From a virus (Duplodnaviria; Heunggongvirae; Uroviricota; Caudoviricetes): a stretch of 64,000 nt of DNA. Below the pieces are notes generated by a model. That model did no database searches and was not told the DNA's origin. It was given only the letters and a program-made list of their open reading frames with translations. Below are positions 2,474 through 63,459 of the stretch, piece by piece. The translations under genes and the position numbers were made by a program. Within the stretch, counting starts at the first letter, position 1. Each line of letters begins with the position of its first letter. The stretch lies in IMG/VR virus record IMGVR_UViG_3300020036_001703. One strand, given 5' to 3'.

Positions 2474-5400
2474 ATGACTCTAGAATTACAAAGTATTGGA
2501 TTCAAAGCAGAGACTGGAGAATTGCTTAAAGTTATTAAAGCAATGGAAGATATTGGGTCTTCTGCTGAAGCTGCATCTAAAAAAGTTGTATCTTCATTCT
2601 CGGATATTAAAAAGGGAGTTGACTCTTTATCAAATGAAAAAGTTGATGTAGGTATTGATGACAATGCAATCAACAAAGCTAAAGCCTATGTAGACCAGCT
2701 TAATAAGGCCGTAGAGGCTGTAACGAAGATGCCTAAGGGGGTAGGTAACCCTATTCAATCTGTAAGCCCTGTAGGTGATTCTGGAGCCTCTGGTGAGGCT
2801 AAGAAGTCTGTAGACTATACTGAAAGGCTGGTCTTAGCTACTAAGATGTTACGAGGCGAGTCAATTGCACTTGCTGATGGTTTAAAGATTCTTACAGATG
2901 GTTTTAGTAAATCTCAAGCTGCAGCCTTGGCTAATTTAATTCTGATGGGTAAATCTGTCGATGAGATTAATAAGGCTAAAGGGGCCTTTGAGGATCTTAA
3001 CAGAATGTCTGGTGTAAACACTTTTGATAAAAGTACATCTGGTGCATACAGATTAAAGAAACAAGTTGAAGAACTTATTCTTGTTAAGAAGCTAGAGGCT
3101 GAAGTTACTGATCTCAATCGTAAAGAAATTATTGACTACGCCCGTGATCTTGAGCGTGTAAATCAACAAGAGAGAGATGGTGTTATTACTGCTAAACAAG
3201 CATTAGTAGATAGAACAAAATTAGCTGAGACTTATAAATCAAATGCTTCTATTCTTAGAAAAATTGAAGCTGAATCCATTGCTAACGAATCAGCAGCTAA
3301 GACTAGAGGTAATACAGAGATCAGGAGAGCTAAGGAATTAGCAACTGCACAGGCTTATGTTTATGGAACTCTTGAAAAATTAAATTACCAAGTATCTCTT
3401 GTTGAAGAAGGTATGGGTAAAGGTGCAACTAATGCAGCTTTCCGTTTTGAACAAAGTTTGAAGAAACTTGGATTATCTGTATCTGAACAAGAAAGATTAC
3501 TTAAGCAATTTGGTGATGCTCAAACTACTTTAGCTGTAAAGCAGAATAAAGATAAAATGGATTATGTAGCAAGAGCAGTTGCACCTCAGATTACCGACAT
3601 TGTAGTTGGTCTGAGTACTGGACAATCTCCAATGACTGTCATGTTACAACAAGGTGGTCAATTGCGCGACATGTTTGGACAAATGGGTGTGGCTTCGCAA
3701 GACATGTCTAAAGTCATGCGTGAAAGTATGGTTCAAATGGCTGGAAGTGTAAAAGGTACTCTTCTTGGTATGTTTGGGCTGTTTCAGGGTTTCTTTATTG
3801 ACATGACAAAGGGTGCTGGAGCATCTGTAGGTAGGCTGGCAACAGATATGACCAAATCCTTTATTGGGTTTACTCAGGGTGCAAAAGCTGCGGAGAATTT
3901 TAAAAACAGTATTGAGGGTGCATCATCTGCAATGGGTCCAGTTGTACCGGGAGTTAACAAAATCTCTGCTGCTTTTACAGGCTTATTTGCTACTGGTCTT
4001 GCAGCGGCTGCTTCTTCTCTTATCTTAATTGCAATATCAATGAAAGATGTACTTTCACTGTCATCTGATTTGTCAAAAGCAATTAATACTACAGGTGCCT
4101 CTCTTGGTATGTCAACAGGTGCAGCTATTCAGTTTAGTAAGTCAATTGATGGTCTTAGTCAGACTCGTGGAATTGAAGTTCTCACTGAAATGGCCAAACA
4201 AGGTGGATTTACTAGAGAGCAGTTTGCTTTATCTGCAAAGGCAATTAGTGAGTACAGTAAGACTACTGGTACTTCCCTTTCTGATACTGTAAAAATGTTC
4301 AAGGAGCTTGAAAAAGATCCTGTCCAAGCTCTATATAAACTTAATTCTGCTATGGGAACAATTCCTTTGGCTGCTATTGCTCAAGTGAATGCTTTAAGAG
4401 AAGCTGGTAAAGCATATGAAGCAAACCTTCTGTCAACAGAGTTGCTTGCCAAGGGGCAAAGAGAAGTTGCAGACACAATCAAAAAGGAATGGGATGTTAT
4501 TGACAAGATTTGGGATAAGGCTAAAACGACTTGGGGAGAACTGAAGTCTGCACTTAACTCAGCGTTGATGCCTTCTGGAACAGACTCTTTTAAGGATTTA
4601 GAAAGAGCTACTGCAAATTTGAAAGATAGGCAGAGCGATTCGAAGAGATTCCCTAATAGTACAATGTACAAAAATGAAGTCATTAAGGCTGAACAAGATG
4701 TGCTGCGTGCTGTCACTAAGATTCGGGATGAGGCTGTTAAGAAAGAGCAGGAAAGAGAGCGTACACTATCTTCAGACTTAATTGCAAGGGGTCTTGCTGA
4801 AGTTCAAAGACAGAAGGACGTTACAAGAGCTAAAAGAGAAGAAACAATGTCTTTTGACGAGTTTTTCAAGGGTAGGATTGAAAAACAGTATGGTTTAGAA
4901 CTCAGCAGAATTCAGGCATTACCGGATGTGTATGCTCAAGCTATGCAACTTAAAGCAGGATATCTGATTGAATACGAGAAGATTCGTAAAAAGATAACTA
5001 AGGATGAAGGTTCTGAATCTTCTGACAAAGTTAAGACTCTTAAATCAGAGTTTGATGCTCAGTATCAGGTTCTTGATAAAGAATTACAAGCTCAATTAGA
5101 TCTGAATAAGAAATATCATGAAGCAGGTATTCTGAATGATCAGCAATATTTTGAAAATCAGAATATTCTATTATCTGAATATAACACTGAAAGAATCTTA
5201 TTAATTGCAGAATATTCAAAGAAAGCTTCTGCTGTTGGTTCTAAGAATGATGGTTTCCTTCAACAATTAGAAAAACAAAAGAACCTTCTTGGTGTAGATG
5301 CACTTAAAAATTATGGTTCTCAAATTGCTGAATCTACTAAGGCTTTAGATAGTTTTTACGAAAGTTTAAATAAAGTCTTCTTAGAAAATAAATTAATTGA

Positions 5401-8176
5401 AGATCAAATGAAGGGTCAATCTGATCTGAGAATTTCTATGATTGGTATGACACCAGATCAAGCTGCAGGTGCTAAAGCTCGGTTTGATATGCTTGAGAAA
5501 TTAAAGAACAAGCAAGGGGAATTAGATCAGAAATTTAAGGACGCCAAAAAGACTTATGAAGCTGCTGGTGTAGCTCGTTCTAAGGGAATGTTAGATCCTG
5601 CTGTTTCTAGTGATGCTCAGGCTCAACTTAATAAGACATATGAAGATGCTAAGGGTGTGTATGATAGAGCTTCCGAAGCTGTAAATCAACTTAATTCTCA
5701 ACAAGAGAGATTAGTTAAACTTGCTGGTGATACTGCACCAATTGATGCTCATATTGCTAAATTCCAAGAATTATCAAATACTGTAAATAGTATTAATCTT
5801 GGTCAAACTTTAGCATCGGGTTTTGATTCTGCTAGTAACTCTGTTGCTGGTTTAATTAACATGGTTGGAAAGCTTACTCAATCATATGAAGATTATCAGG
5901 CTGCTAAAGTTGGTAAGGATGAAAAAACTAAGCAGAAGCTTGATCTCCAATACGGTAAGAATATGGTTCATACTCTTGGTAATATGGCAGGTGCTGCTAA
6001 GGATTACTTTGCTGAACATACGGCTGGCCATAAAGTATTAAGTGCTTTCGAAGGTATTTTCAAAACAATGCAAATGGCTGAAGCTGCATATACTATTGCT
6101 AGTACTGCTGCCAGTGCTATTCGAGCTGCTGCTGCTGGTGTAGAAGCTCTTGCTGTATCTCTTACTGGTGCTCCACCACCCATTTCGTTTGGTATGTTTG
6201 CTGCGACTGCAGCATTACTTGCTGGTATTGGGATTATGGTTGCAGGTGCCGGTTCAGGTGGAGGTTCATTTGCAGCGACTAACACTGGTACCGGTACAGT
6301 AAAGGGTGATCCTACGGCTCAATCTGAATCTATTAAAAACAGCCTTGAAGAGTTAAATAAGATCGACACAATGACAATGAAGTATTCTGCAAAGATGCTT
6401 GTTGCGTTGAATCAGATTGAATACAATACTTCAGGATTGGCTGACTTGTTAGTGAGTTCTGGAATGATTCAGACTAATGCTAGTTCTGCTGGTATTCAGA
6501 CTGGGTTTAAGAGGGATGCTATCGGCAGTGCTTTTTCTGGGACTTATGGTGTTTATGCTAATCTCCAAAAATCTATTCCTTTTATTGGTAGTACACTTAG
6601 CGGCCTCACAAATGCTGTAGGTAACTTTATTGGTAACCTGTTTGGAACTAAAACAAGTATTCAAGGTCAAGGGTTTAACATTGGTTCTCAAGGTCTTGGT
6701 AATATCTTGAATGGTGGATTATCTGCCCAATACTATACTGATGTCGAAAAGAAAGAAAAATTTCTTGGTGTTACTACAAGTACTTCCAGAAAAACTTACT
6801 ATTCCGAAACCGACAAGTTGTTCAAGGATCAGATTAGCTTAATCTTTACAGGATTTGCTGATAGTATTAAAGCTGCTTCTCCTTTACTTGGAACTTCACT
6901 CCAATCTGTTACTGACAAGCTTAATAAATTTGTTGTAAACATTGGTAGAGTTGAAACTTCAGGTCTTTCACAAGAAGACTTGCAGAAGAGACTTAGTGCT
7001 GTATTTAGTGCATTGGGTGATAACATGGCTTCTGCCATTCTTCCTGGGTTTGAGAAATTCCAGAAAGTTGGTGAAGGTTATTACCAGACTATTGTAAGAG
7101 TAGCAACTGGTATAGAAGAGTCTAAGAACTTACTGGATAACTTCGGTATTGCAGTTATTGACGTTAACTCTGTTTTGAACAAACAAGGTGAAGTTGCTGC
7201 CGAAATTGTAAGAGACAGTATCCTTGCTGGTAGACCATTACAAGGTATTGCAGATATTATTGCTGCAATCTCAGGATCAGCAAGCGATATTGCACAAGCA
7301 TATTCTGCTTTAGTCGATGTTCGAGATATCCTTATCTCGATGGGTGTAAGTGCAAGTGCAACAACGAGTTCGTTACTTGCAGGCGCTGGCGGATTATCTA
7401 ATCTTCAGGATTCATTGTCAAGTTATCAAGAAAACTTCATGACTGAAAGTGAAAGACTCGCTGCAAAAACAGCTAAGTTACAAACTCAGTTTAGTGTTCT
7501 TGGTTTGCAAATGCCAACAACTGCACAAGGTTTCGTAGCGCTAGTAAAAGGTATTGATACATCAACTGAATCAGGTCAGAAATTACTTGGTAGAGTTCTC
7601 GGGTTATCGGAAGGTTTCTCGGAAATTACTACTTCGATTGATGATGCTGCGCAAGCAACAACTGATTTCATGAAGAGTATTCTTGATTACGTTAATCAAT
7701 TAGATGTTTCTAGCTCTAATGTAGCAGGTAATTTTGCGCAAGCTAAGGCTCTGTTTGCTGAACAATTCAATTTAGCTAAAGGTGGAGATTCTTCTGCTAG
7801 AGGTAACATTACTTCATACGCAGACAAGCTTCTTGAAGCTGCAAAGAATCAAGCGTCTTCCGCTGTTGAGTATCAAACTATTCTTGCAAGTGTAAAATCT
7901 GAATTACTTGGATTAACTACAGGAGTTTATTCTAATACAGTATTGACTTCCGATATTAATAGTTTACAATCTAGTAATAGTGTTTCTACTGCAACTCAAA
8001 TTGCAGACCAAGCTGAAACTACTCAGGAATTACTTACTGATATCCTTTCCAAGCTTACAGAAATGCAAGCTGAAGATAGGGCAGAAGGCCAGTCAAGTAT
8101 TACTAAACTTAGTACTATCGAAAAGATCTTTAAACGAATTGACAATGATGATTCTATCAGAGTTACTTCAGTTTAA
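2474..8176 (+). CDS. tail tape measure protein
   Basis: 1900-aa ORF; long alanine/glutamine-rich coiled-coil stretches; hydrophobic glycine-rich central segments; position after the chaperones. Confidence 0.85.
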   Translation: MTLELQSIGFKAETGELLKVIKAMEDIGSSAEAASKKVVSSFSDIKKGVDSLSNEKVDVGIDDNAINKAKAYVDQLNKAVEAVTKMPKGVGNPIQSVSPVGDSGASGEAKKSVDYTERLVLATKMLRGESIALADGLKILTDGFSKSQAAALANLILMGKSVDEINKAKGAFEDLNRMSGVNTFDKSTSGAYRLKKQVEELILVKKLEAEVTDLNRKEIIDYARDLERVNQQERDGVITAKQALVDRTKLAETYKSNASILRKIEAESIANESAAKTRGNTEIRRAKELATAQAYVYGTLEKLNYQVSLVEEGMGKGATNAAFRFEQSLKKLGLSVSEQERLLKQFGDAQTTLAVKQNKDKMDYVARAVAPQITDIVVGLSTGQSPMTVMLQQGGQLRDMFGQMGVASQDMSKVMRESMVQMAGSVKGTLLGMFGLFQGFFIDMTKGAGASVGRLATDMTKSFIGFTQGAKAAENFKNSIEGASSAMGPVVPGVNKISAAFTGLFATGLAAAASSLILIAISMKDVLSLSSDLSKAINTTGASLGMSTGAAIQFSKSIDGLSQTRGIEVLTEMAKQGGFTREQFALSAKAISEYSKTTGTSLSDTVKMFKELEKDPVQALYKLNSAMGTIPLAAIAQVNALREAGKAYEANLLSTELLAKGQREVADTIKKEWDVIDKIWDKAKTTWGELKSALNSALMPSGTDSFKDLERATANLKDRQSDSKRFPNSTMYKNEVIKAEQDVLRAVTKIRDEAVKKEQERERTLSSDLIARGLAEVQRQKDVTRAKREETMSFDEFFKGRIEKQYGLELSRIQALPDVYAQAMQLKAGYLIEYEKIRKKITKDEGSESSDKVKTLKSEFDAQYQVLDKELQAQLDLNKKYHEAGILNDQQYFENQNILLSEYNTERILLIAEYSKKASAVGSKNDGFLQQLEKQKNLLGVDALKNYGSQIAESTKALDSFYESLNKVFLENKLIEDQMKGQSDLRISMIGMTPDQAAGAKARFDMLEKLKNKQGELDQKFKDAKKTYEAAGVARSKGMLDPAVSSDAQAQLNKTYEDAKGVYDRASEAVNQLNSQQERLVKLAGDTAPIDAHIAKFQELSNTVNSINLGQTLASGFDSASNSVAGLINMVGKLTQSYEDYQAAKVGKDEKTKQKLDLQYGKNMVHTLGNMAGAAKDYFAEHTAGHKVLSAFEGIFKTMQMAEAAYTIASTAASAIRAAAAGVEALAVSLTGAPPPISFGMFAATAALLAGIGIMVAGAGSGGGSFAATNTGTGTVKGDPTAQSESIKNSLEELNKIDTMTMKYSAKMLVALNQIEYNTSGLADLLVSSGMIQTNASSAGIQTGFKRDAIGSAFSGTYGVYANLQKSIPFIGSTLSGLTNAVGNFIGNLFGTKTSIQGQGFNIGSQGLGNILNGGLSAQYYTDVEKKEKFLGVTTSTSRKTYYSETDKLFKDQISLIFTGFADSIKAASPLLGTSLQSVTDKLNKFVVNIGRVETSGLSQEDLQKRLSAVFSALGDNMASAILPGFEKFQKVGEGYYQTIVRVATGIEESKNLLDNFGIAVIDVNSVLNKQGEVAAEIVRDSILAGRPLQGIADIIAAISGSASDIAQAYSALVDVRDILISMGVSASATTSSLLAGAGGLSNLQDSLSSYQENFMTESERLAAKTAKLQTQFSVLGLQMPTTAQGFVALVKGIDTSTESGQKLLGRVLGLSEGFSEITTSIDDAAQATTDFMKSILDYVNQLDVSSSNVAGNFAQAKALFAEQFNLAKGGDSSARGNITSYADKLLEAAKNQASSAVEYQTILASVKSELLGLTTGVYSNTVLTSDINSLQSSNSVSTATQIADQAETTQELLTDILSKLTEMQAEDRAEGQSSITKLSTIEKIFKRIDNDDSIRVTSV

Positions 8177-9160: not shown

Positions 9161-10222
9161 ATGTTACCTATTTTACCAAATGCTCCTTCAAGAACAGATC
9201 CTACTAACTTCTCTGCGGAAGCTGATGCTTGGATCGCTGCTTTACCAGAATGGACAACTGCAGCTAATAATTTAGAACTATCTTTACAGGCTAATAATTT
9301 AATTGGTACAAGCACTACTAGTTTATCAGTTGGTACAGGTTCAAAAGGATTCACAACTCAAGCTGGAAAAGTTTGGTTAGTTGGTTCTTACTTATATATT
9401 GTTGCATCTACTGACATCACAAAAGTAATGCAAGGAAAAATTACATCATATAATTCATCAACAGGTGCTCTTGTTGTTGATGTAAATATTGCTTCTGGAA
9501 GTGGTACATTTTCAAGTTGGAATATTGGTTCATCAAATCCAGGGTTAGGTGGTACAGCAGATCAAGCTGTATCTGGTAATTTTGGTGTAGGGGGTTTACC
9601 TTTTACTTGGGATAGTGGTTTCAGATCTTTTGATATTGGGTCTAGCGGTTTTATAAGTAGTTGGGTAAGTGGTACTTCATCTACTTCATCAGGTGATAAT
9701 GCATATTACAATTCCAGTGCCTGGAAACGTAAAATTGCTGGAAGTGCCAGTATGGTAAATCAAAATACTGGTGCTGTTGAGATTTACACTGCTGCTAATT
9801 CAACAGCAGGATCTACTATTTCTTGGGTGTTTTCAGCAGTATTTGATTCATCGTCTAATCTGTTGATGCGAGCAGGCGGCGGTCTTGGATATGGTCCAGG
9901 GTCTGGTGATTCAAAAATTCAGTCCACTTCAAAATCCACTGGAGTGACCATCAACAAACCTTCTGGTCAAATCACAATGAATGCTGCTCCTTTAGCTGCA
10001 AATACATCTGTCACCTTCTTAGTTACTAATAGTTCAGTATTGGGTAATGATAATGTGATTGTGAATCTAAAAGGTGGTTATGCAACCTATGGAACTTATG
10101 ATGTGAAAGCTGAAGGAATTGTTGCTGGCAGCTTTGTTATTACATTAAAGAATATTTCTGGTGGATCTTTATCTGAAGCTGTGATTCTAAGTTATTCTAT
10201 CATTAGAGGTTCAACAACATAA
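9161..10222 (+). CDS. tail fibre / receptor-binding protein paralogue A
   Basis: 353 aa; N-terminal ~120 aa (MLPILPNAPSRTDPTNFSAEADAW...) shared with the next ORF; Ser/Thr/Gly-rich. Confidence 0.5.
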   Translation: MLPILPNAPSRTDPTNFSAEADAWIAALPEWTTAANNLELSLQANNLIGTSTTSLSVGTGSKGFTTQAGKVWLVGSYLYIVASTDITKVMQGKITSYNSSTGALVVDVNIASGSGTFSSWNIGSSNPGLGGTADQAVSGNFGVGGLPFTWDSGFRSFDIGSSGFISSWVSGTSSTSSGDNAYYNSSAWKRKIAGSASMVNQNTGAVEIYTAANSTAGSTISWVFSAVFDSSSNLLMRAGGGLGYGPGSGDSKIQSTSKSTGVTINKPSGQITMNAAPLAANTSVTFLVTNSSVLGNDNVIVNLKGGYATYGTYDVKAEGIVAGSFVITLKNISGGSLSEAVILSYSIIRGSTT

Positions 10223-10237
10223 TAAAGGATAATAAAT

Positions 10238-11437
10238 ATGTTACCTATTTTACCGGATGCACCTAGTCGTACAGATCCGACCAATTTCTCAGCTAAGGCT
10301 GATGCCTGGGTAGCTGCTTTACCAGCTTGGACTGAAGCAGCTAATTTATTAGAACAGAGTTTACAACTAGTGTCAACTACTGGAACAAGTACAACAAGTA
10401 AAACTATTGCAAATGGTTCTTGGACTCTTGCAACTCAAGCTGGAAAGGCTTGGGTAGTTGGTTGTTATTTATATTTTGCAAGTTCATCAGATCCAACAAA
10501 GGTAATGACTGGACAAGTAACTTCATATAATTCAACGACAGGATCTCTTACTGTAAATATCACAGTTGTTAGAGGTTCAGGAACATATGCAGATTGGGTT
10601 ATTGGATTAGCTGTACCTGATCAAGCTGCACTGAATTTATCTGGAGGAGCAGGAGGAAGTATTCCTTATCAATCTGGAGCTAATACAACAAGTATGCTTG
10701 CGGCTGGTACTGCAGGTCAGATATTACAAAGTAATGGAAGTGGATCACCAAGCTGGATACCTAATAATGGTAAGCTGATTAACACCCAAATCTTTACATC
10801 AAGTGGTACATATACCCCTAGTGTTGGTACTAGCTTCATAATTGTAGAGATGGTTGCAGGCGGTGGTGGAGGTGGTTCTATCAATGGGACAAGTGCAACT
10901 AATCCAGGTGCTGCTGGTGGTGGTGGATCAGGAGTATATCAGAAGTTTCATGCGTCTGGTGTTGGTTCAGTTGCTGTAACTGTAGGTACAGGAGGTGCTG
11001 GTGCCAGCACGTCACAATCAATTGGAGTGGCAGGTACACATTCACAATTCGGTACGATTGGGTTAGTTCATGGTGGATATCCTGGTAAATCAAGTGATTG
11101 TACTTTGACAGCACCTATCATTGCTTTTGGTGGAAACACATACACTTATCTTGCTACATGCACAGCAACTCTTCTTTCCAGGACAGGTTCTCCTGGTCAA
11201 CCCGGTATGGCTTTGAGTAATTATTCAGATGGAATTCAACACTGTAATCAAAAAGGCGGTGACGGAGGATCAAACCCATTAGGTCAAGGTGGTCTTGGTG
11301 GCTACAACAGTCAAGGCTCTGCTGGACAAGGATATGGCGCTGGCGGCGGCGGATCTAGTACAAATAACTCACCAAGCACTCTTCGATCTGGTGGCAGTGG
11401 ATCTAATGGAATCGTAATTGTTTACGAATATACCTAA
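10238..11437 (+). CDS. tail fibre / receptor-binding protein paralogue B (glycine-rich C-terminus)
   Basis: 399 aa; shares the N-terminus with 9161..10222 then diverges; poly-Gly tracts (GGGGGGS, AGGGGSG). Confidence 0.5.
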   Translation: MLPILPDAPSRTDPTNFSAKADAWVAALPAWTEAANLLEQSLQLVSTTGTSTTSKTIANGSWTLATQAGKAWVVGCYLYFASSSDPTKVMTGQVTSYNSTTGSLTVNITVVRGSGTYADWVIGLAVPDQAALNLSGGAGGSIPYQSGANTTSMLAAGTAGQILQSNGSGSPSWIPNNGKLINTQIFTSSGTYTPSVGTSFIIVEMVAGGGGGGSINGTSATNPGAAGGGGSGVYQKFHASGVGSVAVTVGTGGAGASTSQSIGVAGTHSQFGTIGLVHGGYPGKSSDCTLTAPIIAFGGNTYTYLATCTATLLSRTGSPGQPGMALSNYSDGIQHCNQKGGDGGSNPLGQGGLGGYNSQGSAGQGYGAGGGGSSTNNSPSTLRSGGSGSNGIVIVYEYT

Positions 11438-34429: not shown

Positions 34430-34615
34430 TTATTCATCATTCTCAAGGTAAACAATTTTACATGTATCATCTACAGTATAGCCTGTAACAGATTCCACTT
34501 CAAAAGAATCACAGTTGAATGTAAGAACATCAAAATCAGGGTCAAGATCTTCAAGAATCTGAATCAGTTGTTTGACTTTCATATCTTCCTTTCGGTTCAA
34601 GTTTTTAAGATGCAT
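34430..34615 (-). CDS. hypothetical acidic protein
   Basis: 61 aa. Confidence 0.4.
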   Translation of the reverse strand: MHLKNLNRKEDMKVKQLIQILEDLDPDFDVLTFNCDSFEVESVTGYTVDDTCKIVYLENDE

Positions 34616-34620
34616 GAATC

Positions 34621-34836
34621 CTAGTCTCTAAACTTCATTCTGTCAATGCTTGTTGCAGAAATACAACAGTCTTGATATCTTTGATAATTTTTCATTGAAG
34701 TCTGTAGGCAGAAGATCAAGATGAGTAAGACTGAAAAGATTACAAGAATGTTTACTTTCTTTTTCTTACAATCTTTCTCTTCATGCTGTGTGCTTCCACA
34801 GTACTTACATTTCATGTGCATGATTATTCCTTTCAA
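34621..34836 (-). CDS. Cys-rich membrane protein
   Basis: CKYCGS...C then a hydrophobic helix. Confidence 0.4.
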   Translation of the reverse strand: MKGIIMHMKCKYCGSTQHEEKDCKKKKVNILVIFSVLLILIFCLQTSMKNYQRYQDCCISATSIDRMKFRD

Positions 34837-35191
34837 TGCTTCTAGAACGTGTTAAAACGATCTCTGTTGAATTATTTATCACTGGTTGATGGAGACATAC
34901 CCTGAATGATTTAAACTCATCTGAGGGCTTCTATCTTTGTTTGTTGAACTTTAGCTTTAGTCTACTAAATTGTCAAGATGATAGAGTAGTCTATAAACAA
35001 CAAAACCCAGAAGAAATTAATCCTCTGGGTTAATAGTAGTTAAAACTGAATAGTTTATTAAATAATAAAGATCTGAAAAGATCTGAATGAGTCTGACTTG
35101 AGCATCCTTGGCACCCTGCACCCAATTGGGATTTTACATTACAAAGAAATTTTGTCAATAGTTTTGTTACGTTTGTTACATTGTGCAGTTG

Positions 35192-35205
35192 TTGTAAATT
35201 TACAA
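35192..35205. promoter_or_regulatory. perfect 14-bp palindrome TTGTAAATTTACAA (candidate operator)
   Basis: Read directly; lies 2 bp upstream of the -35 element; two TTTGTTAC repeats just upstream. Confidence 0.4.
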
Positions 35206-35206
35206 C

Positions 35207-35235
35207 TTGACTAAGACTCTGAAGTTGGTTAAAGT
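35207..35235 (+). promoter_or_regulatory. sigma70-like promoter of the plus-strand early block
   Basis: TTGACT, 17-bp spacer, TAAAGT; ~25 nt upstream of the AAAGGAG RBS of the first gene. Confidence 0.45.
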
Positions 35236-35261
35236 TTAGGCATTGAAACAAAGGAGAAGAT

Positions 35262-35525
35262 ATGACTACATGCAAAGTAACAGAACGAGTCTTGAATCTT
35301 GAAGAGTTGGCGAGGAAGGCAAATCTCGCCCAAATGAATAACGCGCCTGAAGGCGTATTCATCGTAGACGCTCAGGCTCTTTCCCTCTTCGCCGCGCTGG
35401 TGCTTGAGAAGGCAGCGGATCTGGCGGATAGCCGTGGCCATCACTGGTCTGGCGAACCATCAAACGCATTCTTCAGCCTGGCCGACGAACTGCGCGCCAT
35501 GTCCGGTTCATGTCTGCATCCTTGA
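35262..35525 (+). CDS. hypothetical protein, GC-rich foreign-looking gene
   Basis: 87 aa; codons dominated by GCC/GCG/CTG/CGC unlike the flanks; first gene after the promoter. Confidence 0.45.
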   Translation: MTTCKVTERVLNLEELARKANLAQMNNAPEGVFIVDAQALSLFAALVLEKAADLADSRGHHWSGEPSNAFFSLADELRAMSGSCLHP

Positions 35526-35600
35526 AAAACATGTCCGCCATCGCAGCCTTGTTAGCTATAATCGCCATCGTGTTTAAATACCTTGAAGAAAGGAATAAAG

Positions 35601-35765
35601 ATGACTGAGACTGTCTACAAGTGCGTGCGCACTCAATCTGGAGAGGTGTACTACTCCGCCTTTGAGCAAGACCCAGATGAGATTGCGTTCGACTATCTCA
35701 ACGTAACAGAAGTGCCCATTAGTGAGGTTCCGCCATTTGGAATTGTTCAATTATCTGAAGAATGA
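35601..35765 (+). CDS. hypothetical protein (GC-rich)
   Basis: Start at the internal ATG with GAAAGGA RBS; 54 aa. Confidence 0.4.
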   Translation: MTETVYKCVRTQSGEVYYSAFEQDPDEIAFDYLNVTEVPISEVPPFGIVQLSEE

Positions 35766-35779
35766 GGTAAAGGATTAAT

Positions 35780-36631
35780 ATGTTTGATAAAATGAAAGAA
35801 GTTCATACTTTGAATACAAAGGGTATGGACTATGTTTTTACAGATTTGCATGGTAATTTTGATTTGTTTCAGAAGGCTTTGGACATTCTTCAGTTTGATC
35901 CTTCTAAAGATCGTGTTACTATTGCTGGAGATTTGTGTGATCGAGGCCCAGAAAGTCTTCGTTGTTTGAAGCTGTTGCTTGAAGATTGGGTAATTGCTGT
36001 TCCTGGCAATCATGAACAAATGTTTGTTGAATACGTTAAGAATCCAAATTCTCCATATGGTAGAGCTTTCATGTACAACGGTGGACAATGGATTTATGAT
36101 TATCCACCTTTCATGTGGGAAGAAGCTGGTATCAATGAAGTGACTGAGAAGATTCAAACTCTTCCTCGTATGCTTACATTCAAGGATACTGACAATAAAA
36201 TCAAATGTCATGTTCTACATGCTGAATTAAATGTTGGATCTATTGAACATCAAATCACAAATGCAGACATTGAAGATGAAGCCACTCTGAAACAAATGCT
36301 TACTCTATCTTCACTTGATGGTGAGTATAGTTTTTGGGGACGAGCAGTATTTTGTGATTTTTATAATCATCCAGTACCTGACTATAGTATGCTTTCTCAA
36401 AAGGGTATTGATCGTCTTAAAAAGTTTTCTCATCCTGATCTCAGTTTGATTATTTCTGGTCATACTATTATGCAGAAACCATTGTGCTTTGGTAACTTGT
36501 TAAATCTTGATACCGGAGCATTTAGAGGTTCTTTGTCTGGATACTGTATTCAAACTAATACGGTATTCACTTTGAATGAAAATGCTTCAGACTTTGTGTA
36601 TGAAGTAAATGAAATTAACCTAAATGACTAA
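35780..36631 (+). CDS. Ser/Thr protein phosphatase-type metallophosphoesterase (lambda PPase-like)
   Basis: TDLHGN...IAGDLCDRGPES...VPGNHEQ calcineurin-like motifs I-III. Confidence 0.8.
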   Translation: MFDKMKEVHTLNTKGMDYVFTDLHGNFDLFQKALDILQFDPSKDRVTIAGDLCDRGPESLRCLKLLLEDWVIAVPGNHEQMFVEYVKNPNSPYGRAFMYNGGQWIYDYPPFMWEEAGINEVTEKIQTLPRMLTFKDTDNKIKCHVLHAELNVGSIEHQITNADIEDEATLKQMLTLSSLDGEYSFWGRAVFCDFYNHPVPDYSMLSQKGIDRLKKFSHPDLSLIISGHTIMQKPLCFGNLLNLDTGAFRGSLSGYCIQTNTVFTLNENASDFVYEVNEINLND

Positions 36632-36641
36632 AGGAAATAAA

Positions 36642-36956
36642 ATGACACAAAAAGTACCTGCTATTCTAAAAAGCAAAAAGAAGATTAAGATCCAAGAAGT
36701 TAAACCTAGCTTTACTCATGCTGAAATTCAGCGGATTCACTCCTTTATGCGAAAAAATCTGCGAGATTTGAACTTCTTTATTCGTATTGCAAAGGGTGAA
36801 ATCACTGAAGCATGGGATTGTGCTATTCCTGGTACAATTGAAGGTGAATTTGCTTATGAACGCTTGAACGGTCTTCGTGAAGCTTTGCGCAGTATGAAAA
36901 CGGAAGAACAAAATATGATTCAGATCCAGCGTAAGCTGAAAAAGATGATGTCCTAA
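36642..36956 (+). CDS. hypothetical protein
   Basis: 104 aa, AAAGGAAAT RBS. Confidence 0.45.
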   Translation: MTQKVPAILKSKKKIKIQEVKPSFTHAEIQRIHSFMRKNLRDLNFFIRIAKGEITEAWDCAIPGTIEGEFAYERLNGLREALRSMKTEEQNMIQIQRKLKKMMS

Positions 36957-36957
36957 A

Positions 36958-37158
36958 ATGAAAGACAAACAAGGGAAAGCTCTTGAAGTAAAAGACAATG
37001 TCAAGTTCTGTACTAGGTTTGGTGAAGTTGTCGGATTTATACAACATATTTCCGACAATTTTGCTAAGGTTTGTTTGCAAGTTCCTGGGTTTGGAAGTTA
37101 TACTTGGAACAAGTCAAGTAAAGAGCTTGAGAAGATTAACGAATGGTGTAAAGTTTAA
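36958..37158 (+). CDS. hypothetical protein
   Basis: 66 aa. Confidence 0.4.
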   Translation: MKDKQGKALEVKDNVKFCTRFGEVVGFIQHISDNFAKVCLQVPGFGSYTWNKSSKELEKINEWCKV

Positions 37159-37167
37159 GGAGATACG

Positions 37168-38190
37168 ATGGAACGTAAGATGGCTACTGTTCGTAGGATT
37201 GATGACATTCAACCTATCATTGGTGCAGACTTGATTGAAGCTGTAAAAATTGGTGGTTGGAATGTTGTTGCTCAGAAAAGCATGGGATACAAGGCAGGTG
37301 ATCTCGTAATTTATTGTGAAATTGATTCTTTCATTCCCAATGAAATTGCACCCTTCTTGACCCAAGGAGGTAAAGAGCCAAAGGAATACAAAGGAGTCAA
37401 GGGTGAACGACTACGAACTAAAAAGCTGAAGGGTGTTGTATCTCAAGGGCTGCTGCTACCATTGAGTGTTGTGTTTGAACTAGATCCTCAAACAAGTGTA
37501 GATATCGTTGGTACAAATGTTTCAGAAATTCTTGGTGTCCAAAAATATGAACCTCCTGCGGAATTCCTAGCTGCTAACGCAAAGGGTTCTTTCCCTTATT
37601 TCATCCCCAAGACTGATCAAGAACGAATTCAAAACCTCAAGAATAAATACAATGATTGGTATGTTGAGAGTAACACTTGGGAAGTAACTGAAAAGTTACA
37701 TGGAAGTAGTATGACGGTTTATTTCAAGGATGGAGAAGTTGGTGTATGTTCTCGTAATCTTGAATTGAAGGAAGACTTGGATAATACATTCTGGAAGACT
37801 GCACATTCTTCAGGTGCTGTTGAAGCTTTGAAATCTCTTGGCAAGAACATGGCAGTTCAAGGTGAATTAATTGGTCCTGGGATCAATGACAATATTTATA
37901 AGTTGACTGATTTCAAGTTCTATGTATTTAATATCTTCGACATTGATAAACAACAATATTTCGTTCCTTCTCACTGTAGAAGTGTTGTAGAAAAACTACA
38001 GCTTCTGCATGTTCCTGTGTTATACTCTGAAGTATTGCAACAAGACAACATTGAAGATGTGCTTTCGTATGCAGAAGGTAAGTCTCAACTAAATATCACA
38101 ACCGAAAGAGAAGGTCTTGTGTTTAAGAAGTTTGATGCAAGTGAAAGTTTTAAGGCAATTTCGAATCGTTGGCTCATCAAGCATGAATGA
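37168..38190 (+). CDS. ATP-dependent RNA ligase, Rnl5/DraRnl-like (N-terminal OB plus nucleotidyltransferase)
   Basis: Motif I EKLHGSS (adenylated Lys); motif IV EREGLVFKK; terminal lysines ...KAISNRWLIKHE; N-terminal OB-like domain; 340 aa. Confidence 0.6.
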   Translation: MERKMATVRRIDDIQPIIGADLIEAVKIGGWNVVAQKSMGYKAGDLVIYCEIDSFIPNEIAPFLTQGGKEPKEYKGVKGERLRTKKLKGVVSQGLLLPLSVVFELDPQTSVDIVGTNVSEILGVQKYEPPAEFLAANAKGSFPYFIPKTDQERIQNLKNKYNDWYVESNTWEVTEKLHGSSMTVYFKDGEVGVCSRNLELKEDLDNTFWKTAHSSGAVEALKSLGKNMAVQGELIGPGINDNIYKLTDFKFYVFNIFDIDKQQYFVPSHCRSVVEKLQLLHVPVLYSEVLQQDNIEDVLSYAEGKSQLNITTEREGLVFKKFDASESFKAISNRWLIKHE

Positions 38191-44174: not shown

Positions 44175-44249
44175 GGGCTGTTAATTCAATGGTAAGAATA
44201 GGCGACTCATAATCGTTCAATATAGGTTCAATTCCTGTACAGCCTACCA
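44175..44249 (+). tRNA. tRNA-Met (anticodon CAT)
   Basis: Hand-folded cloverleaf: acceptor GGGCTGT/ACAGCCT, D stem ATTC/GAAT, anticodon loop CTCATAA, T stem ATAGG/CCTGT, discriminator A plus encoded CCA. Confidence 0.75.
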
Positions 44250-53927: not shown

Positions 53928-54012
53928 GCCCCGATGGTGAAATTGGTAGTACACAGGAGACTTAAAATCTCCCGCTTATGGCGTGCCGGTTCGAATCCGG
54001 CTCGGGGCACCA
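53928..54012 (+). tRNA. tRNA-Leu (anticodon TAA), type II
   Basis: Acceptor GCCCCGA/TCGGGGC; Leu-type D loop AAATTGGTAG; anticodon stem GGAGA/TCTCC with loop CTTAAAA; long variable arm; T arm GCCGGTTCGAATCCGGC; ACCA end. Confidence 0.8.
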
Positions 54013-54016
54013 ATAT

Positions 54017-54091
54017 GGGATTGAAGCTTTAAGGTGAAGCAACGGACTTTTAATCCGTAGAATTGGGATCATTGGCCCAACAGTCCTACCA
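54017..54091 (+). tRNA. tRNA-Lys (anticodon TTT), with 8-nt T loop
   Basis: Acceptor GGGATTG/CAGTCCT (two GU pairs); D stem GCTT/AAGC; anticodon stem ACGGA/TCCGT with loop CTTTTAA; T stem TTGGG/CCCAA; ACCA end; 4 nt after tRNA-Leu. Confidence 0.55.
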
Positions 54092-56331: not shown

Positions 56332-56937
56332 ATGACTGCAAAGTTCGAAAACATTCACGACAACACCTTGGGTAACCGGAACACCTTGGGTAACTGGAAC
56401 ACCTTGGGTAACCGGAACACCTTGGGTAACTGGAACACCTTGGGTAACCGGAACACCTTGGGTAACTGGAACACCTTGGGTAACTGGAACACCTTGGGTA
56501 ACGACAACACCTTGGGTAACTACAACACCTTGGGTAACTACAACACCTTGGGTGACGGGAACACCTTGGGTGACGGGAACACCTTGGGTGACTGGAACAC
56601 CTTGGGTAACTACAACACCTTGGGTGACCGGAACACATTGGGTAACTACAACACCTTGGGTGATTCTCTTAAGTATGGAAAACGATTCTCCTGTGAGGGT
56701 GTGAAAGTAATTGCATTGATGACGATGGCCAATGTGGATGGCAGTGGTCGTAAGATCCACATTTATATTCACACAGAAGGAATTAAGATTGTAGCTGGGT
56801 GTTTCTCTGGTACACTGAATGAATTCTGTGAGAAAGCTATTTCCGAGAATAAAACCCGATATGCTAAGGTTGTAAAGGCTGCTGCTGAAGCTTTGGCTGA
56901 AGATGTGAAGGAAAAGGGTGAAACGAACGGCTGGTGA
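56332..56937 (+). CDS. hexapeptide-repeat protein (17 x NTLG[ND]x) with a C-terminal globular domain
   Basis: AAAGGAAAG RBS; 201 aa; repeats translate from near-identical 18-bp DNA units. Confidence 0.6.
56362..56667 (+). repeat. tandem array of 17 x 18-bp repeats (AACACCTTGGGT[AG]ACNNN)
   Basis: Read directly; variation is confined to the last codon of each unit and one A/G position. Confidence 0.9.
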
Positions 56938-60594: not shown

Positions 60595-60897
60595 ATGTTG
60601 ACAATTGAACAATTGACTTCTGTCGAGTCTCAAATGACCCTCAAGGGGGCAGCGCTCACGGCTAAAATTCTAGCTGATGCGGTACGGCTCAAAATGCGGG
60701 CTGACATTGATAACCCGGCGGCATCCTGCCCACTACCTGGTTTTCTGCCCCTTGCCATAAATCTGCATTTTAACGAGTTGGCGGATAGTCTCGATAATAA
60801 TTGTCCGCACTACCCCGACGACGTGGACATAATCGACACATTGCGCGATCAGGTGGCACAGAATATGCGTGAACTGGGTTTTGATTTTGAGGCATAA
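60595..60897 (+). CDS. hypothetical protein (GC-richer right-end module)
   Basis: 100 aa; codon usage visibly GC-richer than the rest of the window. Confidence 0.45.
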   Translation: MLTIEQLTSVESQMTLKGAALTAKILADAVRLKMRADIDNPAASCPLPGFLPLAINLHFNELADSLDNNCPHYPDDVDIIDTLRDQVAQNMRELGFDFEA

Positions 60898-61810: not shown

Positions 61811-62263
61811 ATGTCACATTTTACAGAATCCGAACTTCGTGCTATTACCAAAGCGAAAAATATCCTCTATCGGGCGCTGAAGACTGGGCCTGTTTTCAAT
61901 TCTCCGCAAGTAGTGAAAGATTATCTACAACTTCAAATAGGGCACCTGGAGCGTGAGGTTTTCGGGGTGCTATATTTGGATGCACAAAACCGACTGATTG
62001 ACTTTGTAATTGAGTTTAACGGCACCCTCACACAAACAAGCGTCTACCCGCGCGAAATTGTTAAACGGGCTATTTCACTCAACGCCGCCAGCACAATCCT
62101 GACACATAATCACCCTTCGGGCTTGTTGGAGCCATCACGGGCCGATGAGTTGCTGACTCAGACTCTAAAATCTAGCCTATCCCTTGTTGATGTAAGGGTT
62201 TTGGACCATTTGATTGTGGGGGTTTCGGGGGCGGTATCTTTTGCTGAATCGGGATATATTTAA
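61811..62263 (+). CDS. radC: RadC-like JAB/MPN domain protein
   Basis: [22 protein letters not shown] matches the RadC JAMM-like H.H...S..D core; 150 aa. Confidence 0.75.
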
Positions 62264-62685: not shown

Positions 62686-63459
62686 ATGCCTGGCTTCATC
62701 ATTTATCAAGGCCCATCACTCATTGACGGTAAGCCTATCGTCGTTATTTACTTGACAGGATCAGATAACGTTAAGACTGGGAATATGGCGCAGACCTATA
62801 TTCTCAGGTCTGATATTGACCCCATCACGGCGTCACGACATGGGGACGATTACTCAATATGTGGAGACTGCAAACATAGGGGCACACCTAATCCAAACAA
62901 GTCCAAGGGTTGGGCAGATGATAGGGCTTGTTATGTGAACCTCATACATGGCCCCAATCAGGTGTATAAGGCATTCAAGGCGGGAAAGTACCCCTCAGTT
63001 AGCATGTCACCTTATTCCCTGCCACAAACCCTTACAATCTTAGGGTGTGACCAGATCATCAGAATCGGATCTTATGGCGATCCTCTGGCTGTGCCGCATG
63101 ATGTATGGGCAAGCCTAACCCGTAAAGCTGAAACCTGGACAGGCTACACCCACCAATCAGAAACAAACCCCGATAATCGCACAATCAATTTGTGTATGAT
63201 CTCGGTCGATAACAAAGCCGAGTATCATCGAGCACAGTCTAAGGGTTTGAGAACCTTCCGCATTATCCCTTATCAGGAATATAAGGAATTTGGACATGAC
63301 AGTATCATGCCCAATGAGATACTATGTCCGGCTAGTAAAGAGGCTATTATCGAAAAGAGTATTACATGCTCAGAATGTAAACTGTGCAAGGGTCAAACTA
63401 TTAAGGCTAAGAGTATTGCAATAGTGGCGCATGGCGTAGGTCGTAAACATATTATTTAA
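62686..63459 (+). CDS. Cys-rich hypothetical protein (257 aa)
   Basis: CGDCKHRG ... CSECKLCKG clusters; no family recognised. Confidence 0.5.
   Translation: MPGFIIYQGPSLIDGKPIVVIYLTGSDNVKTGNMAQTYILRSDIDPITASRHGDDYSICGDCKHRGTPNPNKSKGWADDRACYVNLIHGPNQVYKAFKAGKYPSVSMSPYSLPQTLTILGCDQIIRIGSYGDPLAVPHDVWASLTRKAETWTGYTHQSETNPDNRTINLCMISVDNKAEYHRAQSKGLRTFRIIPYQEYKEFGHDSIMPNEILCPASKEAIIEKSITCSECKLCKGQTIKAKSIAIVAHGVGRKHII

Follow-up and report, generated by a model that had tools for sequence, protein, structure and literature searches.

A probable horizontally acquired mosaic at the head of an early operon in a virulent phage of low GC content

We analyzed a stretch of 64,000 nucleotides (hereafter the window) from the tailed-virus record IMGVR_UViG_3300020036_001703, which is part of a virulent long-tailed phage of ∼77–80 kilobases (kb) with 37% GC. 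Our subject is a GC-rich island at positions 35262–35770, immediately behind a rightward promoter, which a preliminary description made from the letters had presented as a recently acquired two-gene insert. The two open reading frames (ORFs) named there, encoding 87 amino acids (aa; 35262–35525) and 54 aa (35601–35765), both exist as given, and they are followed in the same operon by genes for a phosphatase and an RNA ligase. Our analysis indicates that the island is probably a horizontally acquired mosaic in the promoter-proximal slot of this rightward early operon, and that the 87-aa product is a chimera that keeps a full foreign domain. The features that bear on this reading are as follows; GC3 denotes the G+C fraction at third codon positions.

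35207..35235, plus strand: rightward sigma-70-type promoter, TTGACT-17-TAAAGT, predicted as a consensus match
35252..35256, plus strand: Shine-Dalgarno sequence AGGAG, 5 nucleotides (nt) ahead of the ATG, native to the phage and identical in the relative L003
35262..35525, plus strand: chimeric 87-aa ORF, comprising a native leader of 12–13 codons and the full domain of an uncharacterised helical family
35262..35298, plus strand: native AT-rich 5' end of the first early gene, 36% GC, equal to the start of a 133-aa gene in L003
35299..35305, plus strand: left junction between native gene and foreign fragment, with TTG(A)AGA microhomology, placed by alignment
35299..35505, plus strand: foreign GC-rich gene fragment of ∼207 base pairs (bp), 58% GC, GC3 0.63
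35506..35587, plus strand: stretch private to the phage, of mixed origin, holding a second CATGTCCG copy, GCCATCGCAGCC and then AT-rich DNA
35601..35765, plus strand: gene for a 54-aa acidic protein, a separate module, 46% GC, GC3 0.47, common to L006–L010 and L004/L005

Composition and structure of the island

The region had been judged by eye to be roughly half G+C, against about one third in its neighbors, and measurement bears this out: 35262–35770 contains 49.3% G+C, compared with a window mean of 36.9% and with 30–36% in the flanks on either side. Sliding-window analysis shows that GC content is not uniform along the window and that the island is its strongest peak, being the highest of the 64 kb at window sizes of 100, 150, 200, 264, 300 and 500 bp. 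The island peaks at 59–62%, and the 200-bp maximum (35307–35506) reaches 59.0% G+C (z = 4.8). Codon usage deviates in the same direction. In the foreign part of the 87-aa ORF, GC3 reaches 0.63, compared with a mean of 0.279 (standard deviation 0.083) for 66 long ORFs of the window; 9 of 14 alanine codons are GCC or GCG (12% in the reference genes), and 5 of 12 leucine codons are CTG (10% in the reference genes). Because the third-position values differ so widely (0.63 vs 0.28), the bias is synonymous. The enrichment of GCC, GCG and CTG claimed at the outset is therefore real, while that of CGC, which occurs only once, was overstated. The 87-aa ORF is carried by five contigs, and two of these, obtained from separate samples, match the window at 100% identity across 3.5 kb, which excludes an assembly artefact.

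Alignment with related contigs resolves the 87-aa ORF into a native leader and a foreign body. The 133-aa gene of L003 (39% GC) begins in the same way as the leader of the window, MTTYKVTERVLNL, and the left junction, where the two part, falls inside the first copy of an 8-nt sequence, CTTGAAGA (35298–35305). Two segments of different affinity follow. Segment A (35296–35419) is 98% identical both to a 109-aa gene of L003 and to L060, a contig of 55% GC, while segment B (35424–35505) is ∼98% identical to L055 (59% GC) and 80% identical to L011–L013 (58–60% GC); the switch from A to B lies inside a conserved core, GCGCTGGTGCTTGAGAAGGCGGCGGA. Similarity to the donors stops at 35505, after CATGTCCG, and the ORF terminates six codons further on, so that the family tail ...AALQSGDRG is replaced by GSCLHP. 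The foreign fragment of ∼207 bp contains no start or stop codon and no promoter-like or terminator-like site of its own; as it is fused in frame to the native leader, the native promoter, Shine-Dalgarno sequence and ATG now drive the 87-aa chimera. Thus, the foreign DNA of the proposed two-gene insert is confirmed, but its character as a cassette is not: the foreign part is a ∼207-bp fragment in frame on a native 5' end, and the 54-aa gene is independent of it.

Beyond the foreign fragment, the private stretch begins with donor-like sequence and ends in AT-rich DNA. It contains a second CATGTCCG copy (35530–35537) and then the 12-mer GCCATCGCAGCC (35537–35548), a donor-type boundary sequence that is unique in the window (0.00 expected) and that in L060 stands directly after segment A. 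The AT-rich end closes with a second copy of CTTGAAGA (35582–35589). The two copies of this direct repeat share a codon phase and coincide exactly with the two borders, which were mapped independently; they could be a coincidence, the trace of a duplicated target, or a microhomology that served twice. Homology to L006–L010 resumes at 35588, 13 nt 5' of the start of the 54-aa gene.

The 54-aa gene has a different history. Its product is strongly acidic, with 11 D+E residues vs 2 K+R, a charge of −9.5 and an isoelectric point (pI) of 4.05. In the five related contigs L006–L010 the protein is identical and the DNA 98% identical, with 3 synonymous and 0 non-synonymous changes; the homologue in a phage of 51% GC (L004/L005) is 88% identical, and comparison with L004 gives 21 synonymous and 6 non-synonymous codon changes. 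The synonymous excess in these comparisons indicates a real gene under purifying selection. For this gene the idea of a recent private acquisition has to be abandoned, since five related contigs carry it at 98% identity and with the same composition. We take it to be a second, older module that would have come from a phage of moderate GC content. Searches of Pfam, PHROGs, PADLOC and PDB gave no homologue of known function for the 54-aa protein.

Relatives, donors and a proposed history

The foreign part of the 87-aa chimera belongs to a sizable protein family. A family profile search yielded 79 representatives among 1.84 billion clusters at 50% identity, and 395 clusters at 90% identity; nearly all members are 70–100 aa long (∼80 aa), and none is annotated. 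The family is marked by the conserved pattern LAREAG...FAALVLEEAA..AD..GHxWSGxPA..FF.LA..IRAM, and because the 87-aa protein spans profile positions 2–81 of 85, its domain is complete. An AlphaFold2 model of the 87-aa protein, based on the family alignment (predicted local distance difference test (pLDDT) 84, predicted template-modeling score (pTM) 0.71), shows two long antiparallel helices (37–59, 65–85) preceded by two short ones, with a disordered native leader. Comparison of 47 family members with Pfam and PHROGs (E ≤ 0.01) gave no match except two spurious single ones, and fold and sequence searches with the family and the 87-aa protein against PDB and BFVD returned generic helical hairpins only. 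One PDB profile match, to Csp3 (E = 4e-4), was judged spurious as a weak match of Ala-rich helix: Csp3 is defined by its Cys-rich character, and the family is not Cys-rich.

The family members that we sampled reside in phage-like contigs of 55–63% GC. In L018, a temperate phage contig, the member lies between a YqaJ exonuclease (1956–2564) and Exc plus integrase (9651–10957), and in L020 and L056 members stand among P22-type and DUF551-type early genes. These homologues, together with close relatives that are without the 87-aa gene, support the earlier proposal of horizontal acquisition from a higher-GC host or its prophage pool. In contrast, an enterobacterial prophage source is rejected, because a comparison of the island with 5,426 E. 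coli genomes gave no match. For the 87-aa protein itself, a large protein database contained five homologues only, all mosaic in that they share either its N-terminal or its C-terminal half, IMG/VR contained none, and a genome collection gave one weak match, L017. A tblastn search against cultured phages with the 87-aa protein, the 54-aa protein, P0003 and a typical family member gave no match.

The GC-rich pieces found in the relatives point to the same source. Those of L003, L006, L009 and L014 share with the donor contigs linkers of 21–29 nt that are 92–100% identical; one shared linker, GCCCAGGCCGCGCAGGGTGAGCC, encodes ...AQAAQGEP..., ATGACTGACACCCCCGAGGCAGTGC is a shared gene start, and GCCATCGCAGCCAGCGGGAGGCAG is a further border linker. 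Since these linkers are common to inserts and donors, we regard the donors as a pool of temperate-phage modular early accessory genes that shuffle at conserved boundaries. L020 also encodes, at 4873–5859, a 328-aa modular protein in which small domains are split by the repeated linkers TQPAQAAQ, AQAAQGGPVA and AQGAGEVVA. The DNA of its linkers (21–29 nt) recurs in the GC-rich inserts of L006 (1–300), L009 (1–470) and L014 (5713–6063), and linkers of this type look like recombination-prone boundary sequences.

All relatives that cover the slot hold different GC-rich DNA there: five fillings are seen, between conserved flanks that are 87–98% identical, and GC3 of the foreign pieces is 0.57–0.71, compared with 0.30–0.37 for the native genes. 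Searches anchored on the phosphatase and its neighbors contributed no more than one IMG/VR relative and one short metagenome contig. In L003, the same promoter, ribosome-binding site (RBS) and ATGACT are followed by a 104-aa gene of 60% GC, the native 133-aa gene, and GC-rich genes of 109 and 158 aa. In L006, a GC-rich ORF precedes native genes of 69 and 131 aa, after which come the 54-aa gene and the phosphatase, and in L009/L010 an in-frame fusion links the GC-rich piece to what remains of the 131-aa gene, its C-terminal part. The most extreme arrangement is that of L014 (IMGVR_UViG_3300033121_000168, 80 kb), where a 63% GC insert (5683–6492) is in frame on the last 166 residues of the phosphatase. 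This insert replaces the 5' 117 codons of the phosphatase gene, which encode the N-terminal part of the Metallophos domain, a part that we take to hold the metal-binding motifs; given this truncation, the phosphatase appears to be dispensable in the clade. The promoters of L014 are a different, back-to-back divergent pair, and its insert brings promoter-like sequences of its own.

Gene content and junctions vary accordingly. L014 is without both the 87-aa and the 54-aa genes, L003 and L006–L010 are without the 87-aa gene as such, and the window phage is without the native 133-, 69- and 131-aa genes. The junction with foreign DNA also moves: L003 has it after ATGACT, L006 ahead of the RBS, the window at codon 13, and L014 within the phosphatase. 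The fusions of native to foreign sequence are all in frame (3/3 in the clade; p ∼0.04 if neutral). From these comparisons, the slot appears to be a promoter-proximal plasticity hot spot. Limnohabitans phage DC31 has no GC island at its divergent early region.

DC31 is nevertheless informative about the phage as a whole, which encodes a tail tube protein, a 1900-aa tape measure protein, PolA, DnaB, an RNA ligase and a dCMP deaminase. At the DNA level, region 35000–36000 has no match among 50,697 phage records, and the phage is thus without a DNA-level relative there. At the protein level, DC31 is the nearest cultured relative, although a distant one: 24 of 98 ORFs match it with 25–70% aa identity and largely kept order (ThyX 70%, tail tube 58%, RNA ligase 50%). 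DC31 is a long-tailed phage of 76.2 kb with 37.58% G+C, and its host has 59.25% (PMC12195039). The window also contains the following tRNA genes.

44175–44249: tRNA-Met
53928–54012: tRNA-Leu(TAA)
54017–54091: tRNA-Lys(TTT)

The relationship to DC31, together with the tRNAs for AT-rich codons (Leu-TAA, Lys-TTT), suggests that the host of the phage has a much higher GC content than the phage itself.

The simplest history would begin with an L003-like ancestor carrying, in this order, the promoter, the native 133-aa gene and a complete GC-rich family gene. That ancestor would have lost the DNA from TTGTAGA in the native gene to TTGAAGA in the foreign gene. The result would be the present arrangement, in which ∼207 bp from a temperate-phage gene of ∼60% GC appear joined, through a 3–7-nt microhomology, to the first 12–13 early-gene codons of the phage. 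Because entry into the AT-rich phage used microhomologies of only 3–7 nt (ATGACT in L003, TTGAAGA here), illegitimate recombination is the mechanism indicated. In the proposed scheme, host RNA polymerase would use the sigma-70-type promoter to transcribe the operon as infection begins, and both small proteins would be made ahead of the phosphatase and the RNA ligase.

Control region and neighboring genes

The surroundings of the island add the following features.

34948..34976, minus strand: leftward sigma-70-type promoter, TTGACA-17-TAAAGT, predicted as a consensus match
35163 and 35172, plus strand: direct repeats, two copies of TTTGTTAC, a possible operator
35192–35205, plus strand: perfect palindrome TTGTAAATTTACAA abutting the −35 box, a possible operator
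35510..35608, plus strand: putative 32-aa ORF (25 aa from a second ATG at 35531), with a hydrophobic helix, AIAALLAIIAIVF
35780..36631, plus strand: NinI-like Ser/Thr metallophosphatase, the next gene of the operon

The two promoter candidates are distinctive within the window: the pattern TTGACN-N16-18-TAAAGT occurs at 2 sites in 64 kb, compared with 0.27 expected, and both sites lie in the divergent intergenic region, in opposite directions. This region is 98% identical between the window and L003, and the TTTGTTAC repeats and the palindrome TTGTAAATTTACAA are conserved there. The promoter at 35207, its palindrome and the upstream repeats are all present as first described, and 35163–35205 may act as an operator. 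Neither the palindrome TTGTAAATTTACAA nor the octamer TTTGTTAC is more frequent within the window than expected by chance, and with motif counts at chance level we set aside the idea that they form a repeated operator family. No convincing terminator was found between the island promoter and the phosphatase gene, and a search for structured RNA in 34600–35900 gave no Rfam match at E ≤ 1.

The same intergenic region holds a candidate small RNA on the minus strand (34994–35158). Its candidate promoter is TTGACA-16-TAAAAT (35158→35131, 11/12 match), and a candidate intrinsic terminator lies ∼100 nt further on (35031→35004), formed by an 11-bp stem and then a TTTTGTTGTTT tail. The region has a fold z-score of −2.36 and contains a tandem pair of AAAGATCTGA at 35067–35086, and its part from 35038 to 35180 is 100% identical in L003.

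Between the two island genes lies the putative 32-aa ORF, absent from the preliminary description, which covers the stop codon of the 87-aa ORF and, at its other end, runs into the 54-aa gene with an overlap of ATGA. Neither a homologue nor a clear Shine-Dalgarno sequence was found for it, and L006 shares only its last 13 nt, which form the RBS of the next gene; we set it aside as a conserved gene because conservation is limited to these final 13 nt.

Past the island, the operon (35780–38190) encodes the phosphatase and an OB-domain RNA ligase, which may constitute an RNA-repair module against host anticodon nucleases. In L006, 3608–4619 encodes an AAA_33 kinase-like protein adjoining a second metallophosphatase. 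Elsewhere in the window, elevated GC and GC3 (0.45–0.61 vs 0.28) are also seen in the genes at 56332–56937, 60595–60897, 61811–62263 and 62686–63459. These include genes for a RadC-like JAB domain protein and a DUF7227-like protein, and one gives a weak, sub-threshold hexapeptide-repeat match. These high-GC3 genes may be additional acquisitions from higher-GC sources.

Competing explanations and meaning

What the products of a horizontally acquired mosaic would do in this phage is a separate matter. For the 54-aa protein, we see about an even chance that it is a dispensable, strain-variable small binding protein directed against host, prophage or defence targets, while for the 87-aa chimera the same role is a tentative suggestion, somewhat less likely to be right than wrong. 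Several points weigh against our reading of the island. The copies of the 87-aa chimera are all identical, so that selection is not measurable and the ORF may be a tolerated scar, and, generic helical hairpins apart, neither protein resembles an annotated family or a structure already solved. The promoter is predicted from its consensus, and expression is taken to be early because the promoters are of the host type. The stretch 35506–35587 is of mixed origin and is not traced to one source, and a simple deletion history leaves the CTTGAAGA repeat at both borders unexplained. The high GC content of the host is deduced from a distant relative, and the statement that every relative differs in the slot rests on a small sample of five slot variants.

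Foremost among the alternatives is the possibility just mentioned, namely that the 87-aa ORF is a neutral recombination scar, its joint in frame by chance and its product functionless here. The ORF does combine a native leader with foreign sequence that is cut short at its C-terminus (GSCLHP for ...AALQSGDRG), the five identical contigs give no sign of selection, and the slot is dispensable to the point that L014 is even without the catalytic half of the phosphatase. However, a scar does not readily account for a full conserved domain in frame with the native start and with a confident fold (pLDDT 84), nor for a clade in which 3/3 fusions are in frame (p ∼0.04 if neutral). We consider this explanation unlikely, though it deserves to be kept in view.

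Rather unlikely, in our judgment, is a dedicated anti-restriction or anti-defence function, in which the 54-aa protein would work as an inhibitor or by mimicking DNA, and the 87-aa protein would counter a defence of the host or of a prophage as soon as infection begins. Both genes come first behind a host-type promoter, the 54-aa protein (charge −9.5, pI 4.05) is under purifying selection, the RNA ligase and phosphatase of the operon are a possible RNA-repair counter-defence, and the contig of the L004 homologue also encodes a Tad2-like protein. Yet acidity and position, the features that agree with the anti-restriction or host-takeover role first proposed, point to it only weakly and without specificity, the charge of the 87-aa protein is mild (−4.2), and no match to known anti-defence, PADLOC, Pfam, PHROG or PDB entries was found; moreover, relatives do without the 87-aa gene, and L014 does without both.

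A more elaborate possibility is that the 5' end of the first early gene is a recurrent gene trap, through which the AT-rich lineage samples domain-sized pieces of the exo-xis-type regions of GC-rich prophages in its host and joins them in frame to its own early genes. The captured domains would act against exclusion or defence encoded by prophages, either inhibiting it or serving as decoys, and capture would be favored mechanistically, for example by the CTTGAAGA repeats and the donor boundaries, and not by selection alone. We regard this as improbable.

Active site-specific capture at the promoter-proximal site, whether integron-like, transposon-like or by homing, is more improbable still. 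The slot has received five different GC-rich fillings within a few to a few hundred nt of the same RBS and start, the 8-nt repeat CTTGAAGA stands at both ends of the 284 bp private to the phage, and the donor modules have conserved boundary sequences of 20–30 nt. However, neither in nor next to the slot is there an integrase, transposase, HNH or GIY-YIG gene, an attC-like site or a terminal inverted repeat, and junction positions vary across the relatives; the microhomologies of 3–7 nt fit illegitimate recombination followed by selection. It is this variation of the junctions between relatives, together with the lack of a recombinase or terminal repeats, that makes active capture unlikely. Most probably, the slot is a hot spot where insertions are tolerated and immediately expressed, and a dedicated capture machinery is less likely.

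Finally, a native gene rich in GC-raising amino acids, or a metagenome assembly chimera, is scarcely credible: the protein is Ala- and Leu-rich and the sequence comes from metagenomes, but the bias is synonymous (GC3 0.63 vs 0.28), independent samples yield the identical sequence, unrelated GC-rich contexts contain DNA that matches it at 98% identity, and relatives exist without the sequence.

A horizontally acquired mosaic has parallels in several known systems. Comeau et al. (2007) reportedly described a 'plastic periphery' of T4-like phages, and the present island resembles such plastic early regions in having small ORFs, mostly ORFans, with content that varies between collinear relatives. 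Host-type promoters drive the ORFs of such regions, and the promoters predicted here are consensus matches to that type. The island differs in that the GC3 contrast is unusually sharp (0.6 vs 0.28), so that foreign pieces, donor pools and junctions can each be mapped to the nucleotide, and the variability is centered on the first gene of the operon. Lambdoid phages are said to exchange modules at conserved boundary sequences (Susskind and Botstein; Clark et al. 2001 for HK620), and the donor pool described here likewise shows near-identical linkers of 20–30 nt at module borders (GCCCAGGCCGCGCAGGGTGAGCC, ATGACTGACACCCCCGAGGCAGTGC, GCCATCGCAGCCAGCGGGAGGCAG); in contrast, entry into the AT-rich phage was by 3–7-nt microhomologies only. 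T7 Ocr (117 aa), ArdA and T4 Arn (92 aa) are early anti-restriction DNA mimics. The 54-aa protein is similarly small, very acidic (−9.5, a charge that by itself does not diagnose a mimic) and, according to its predicted expression, among the first made, but it has no sequence or fold similarity to these mimics and at 54 aa is shorter.

Canonical morons are whole transcription units of temperate phages, with their own promoter and terminator (PMC3594210). Like the morons of the HK97/HK022 type (PMC3594210), the island is extra relative to close relatives, deviant in GC content (58% vs 33–35%), accessory and dispensable; unlike them, it is a gene fragment that has brought neither start nor stop codon, neither promoter nor terminator, and that sits, fused to a native gene, in a virulent phage behind a native early promoter. 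The exo-xis/ead genes of lambdoid phages (PMC3824215, PMC8614690, PMC7093339) are comparable in that the L018 homologue lies between the exonuclease and Exc/integrase and that family members are small, early and non-essential. The difference is that the window copy is in a virulent phage, for which a role in the lysis-lysogeny decision would be senseless. Homology of the family to lambda ea8.5, orf60a, orf61, orf63 or ea22 found no support in the Pfam and PHROG searches with family members, no direct comparison with the lambda proteins having been made.

Clear though it is, the island is an ordinary example of gene shuffling among phages, within known mosaicism, in which the contrast between 37% and ∼60% GC makes the foreign pieces and their junctions visible at nucleotide resolution. 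It would represent a new class of system only if active capture or a specific anti-defence activity proved true. As it stands, with its microhomology junctions and in-frame fusions, it shows cleanly how genes flow in nature from temperate into virulent phages. It also offers two candidate early effectors, the 87-aa chimera, from an uncharacterised helical family of ∼400 members, and the 54-aa acidic protein. The donors and the phage presumably share a high-GC host, which aids host assignment for this uncultured clade.

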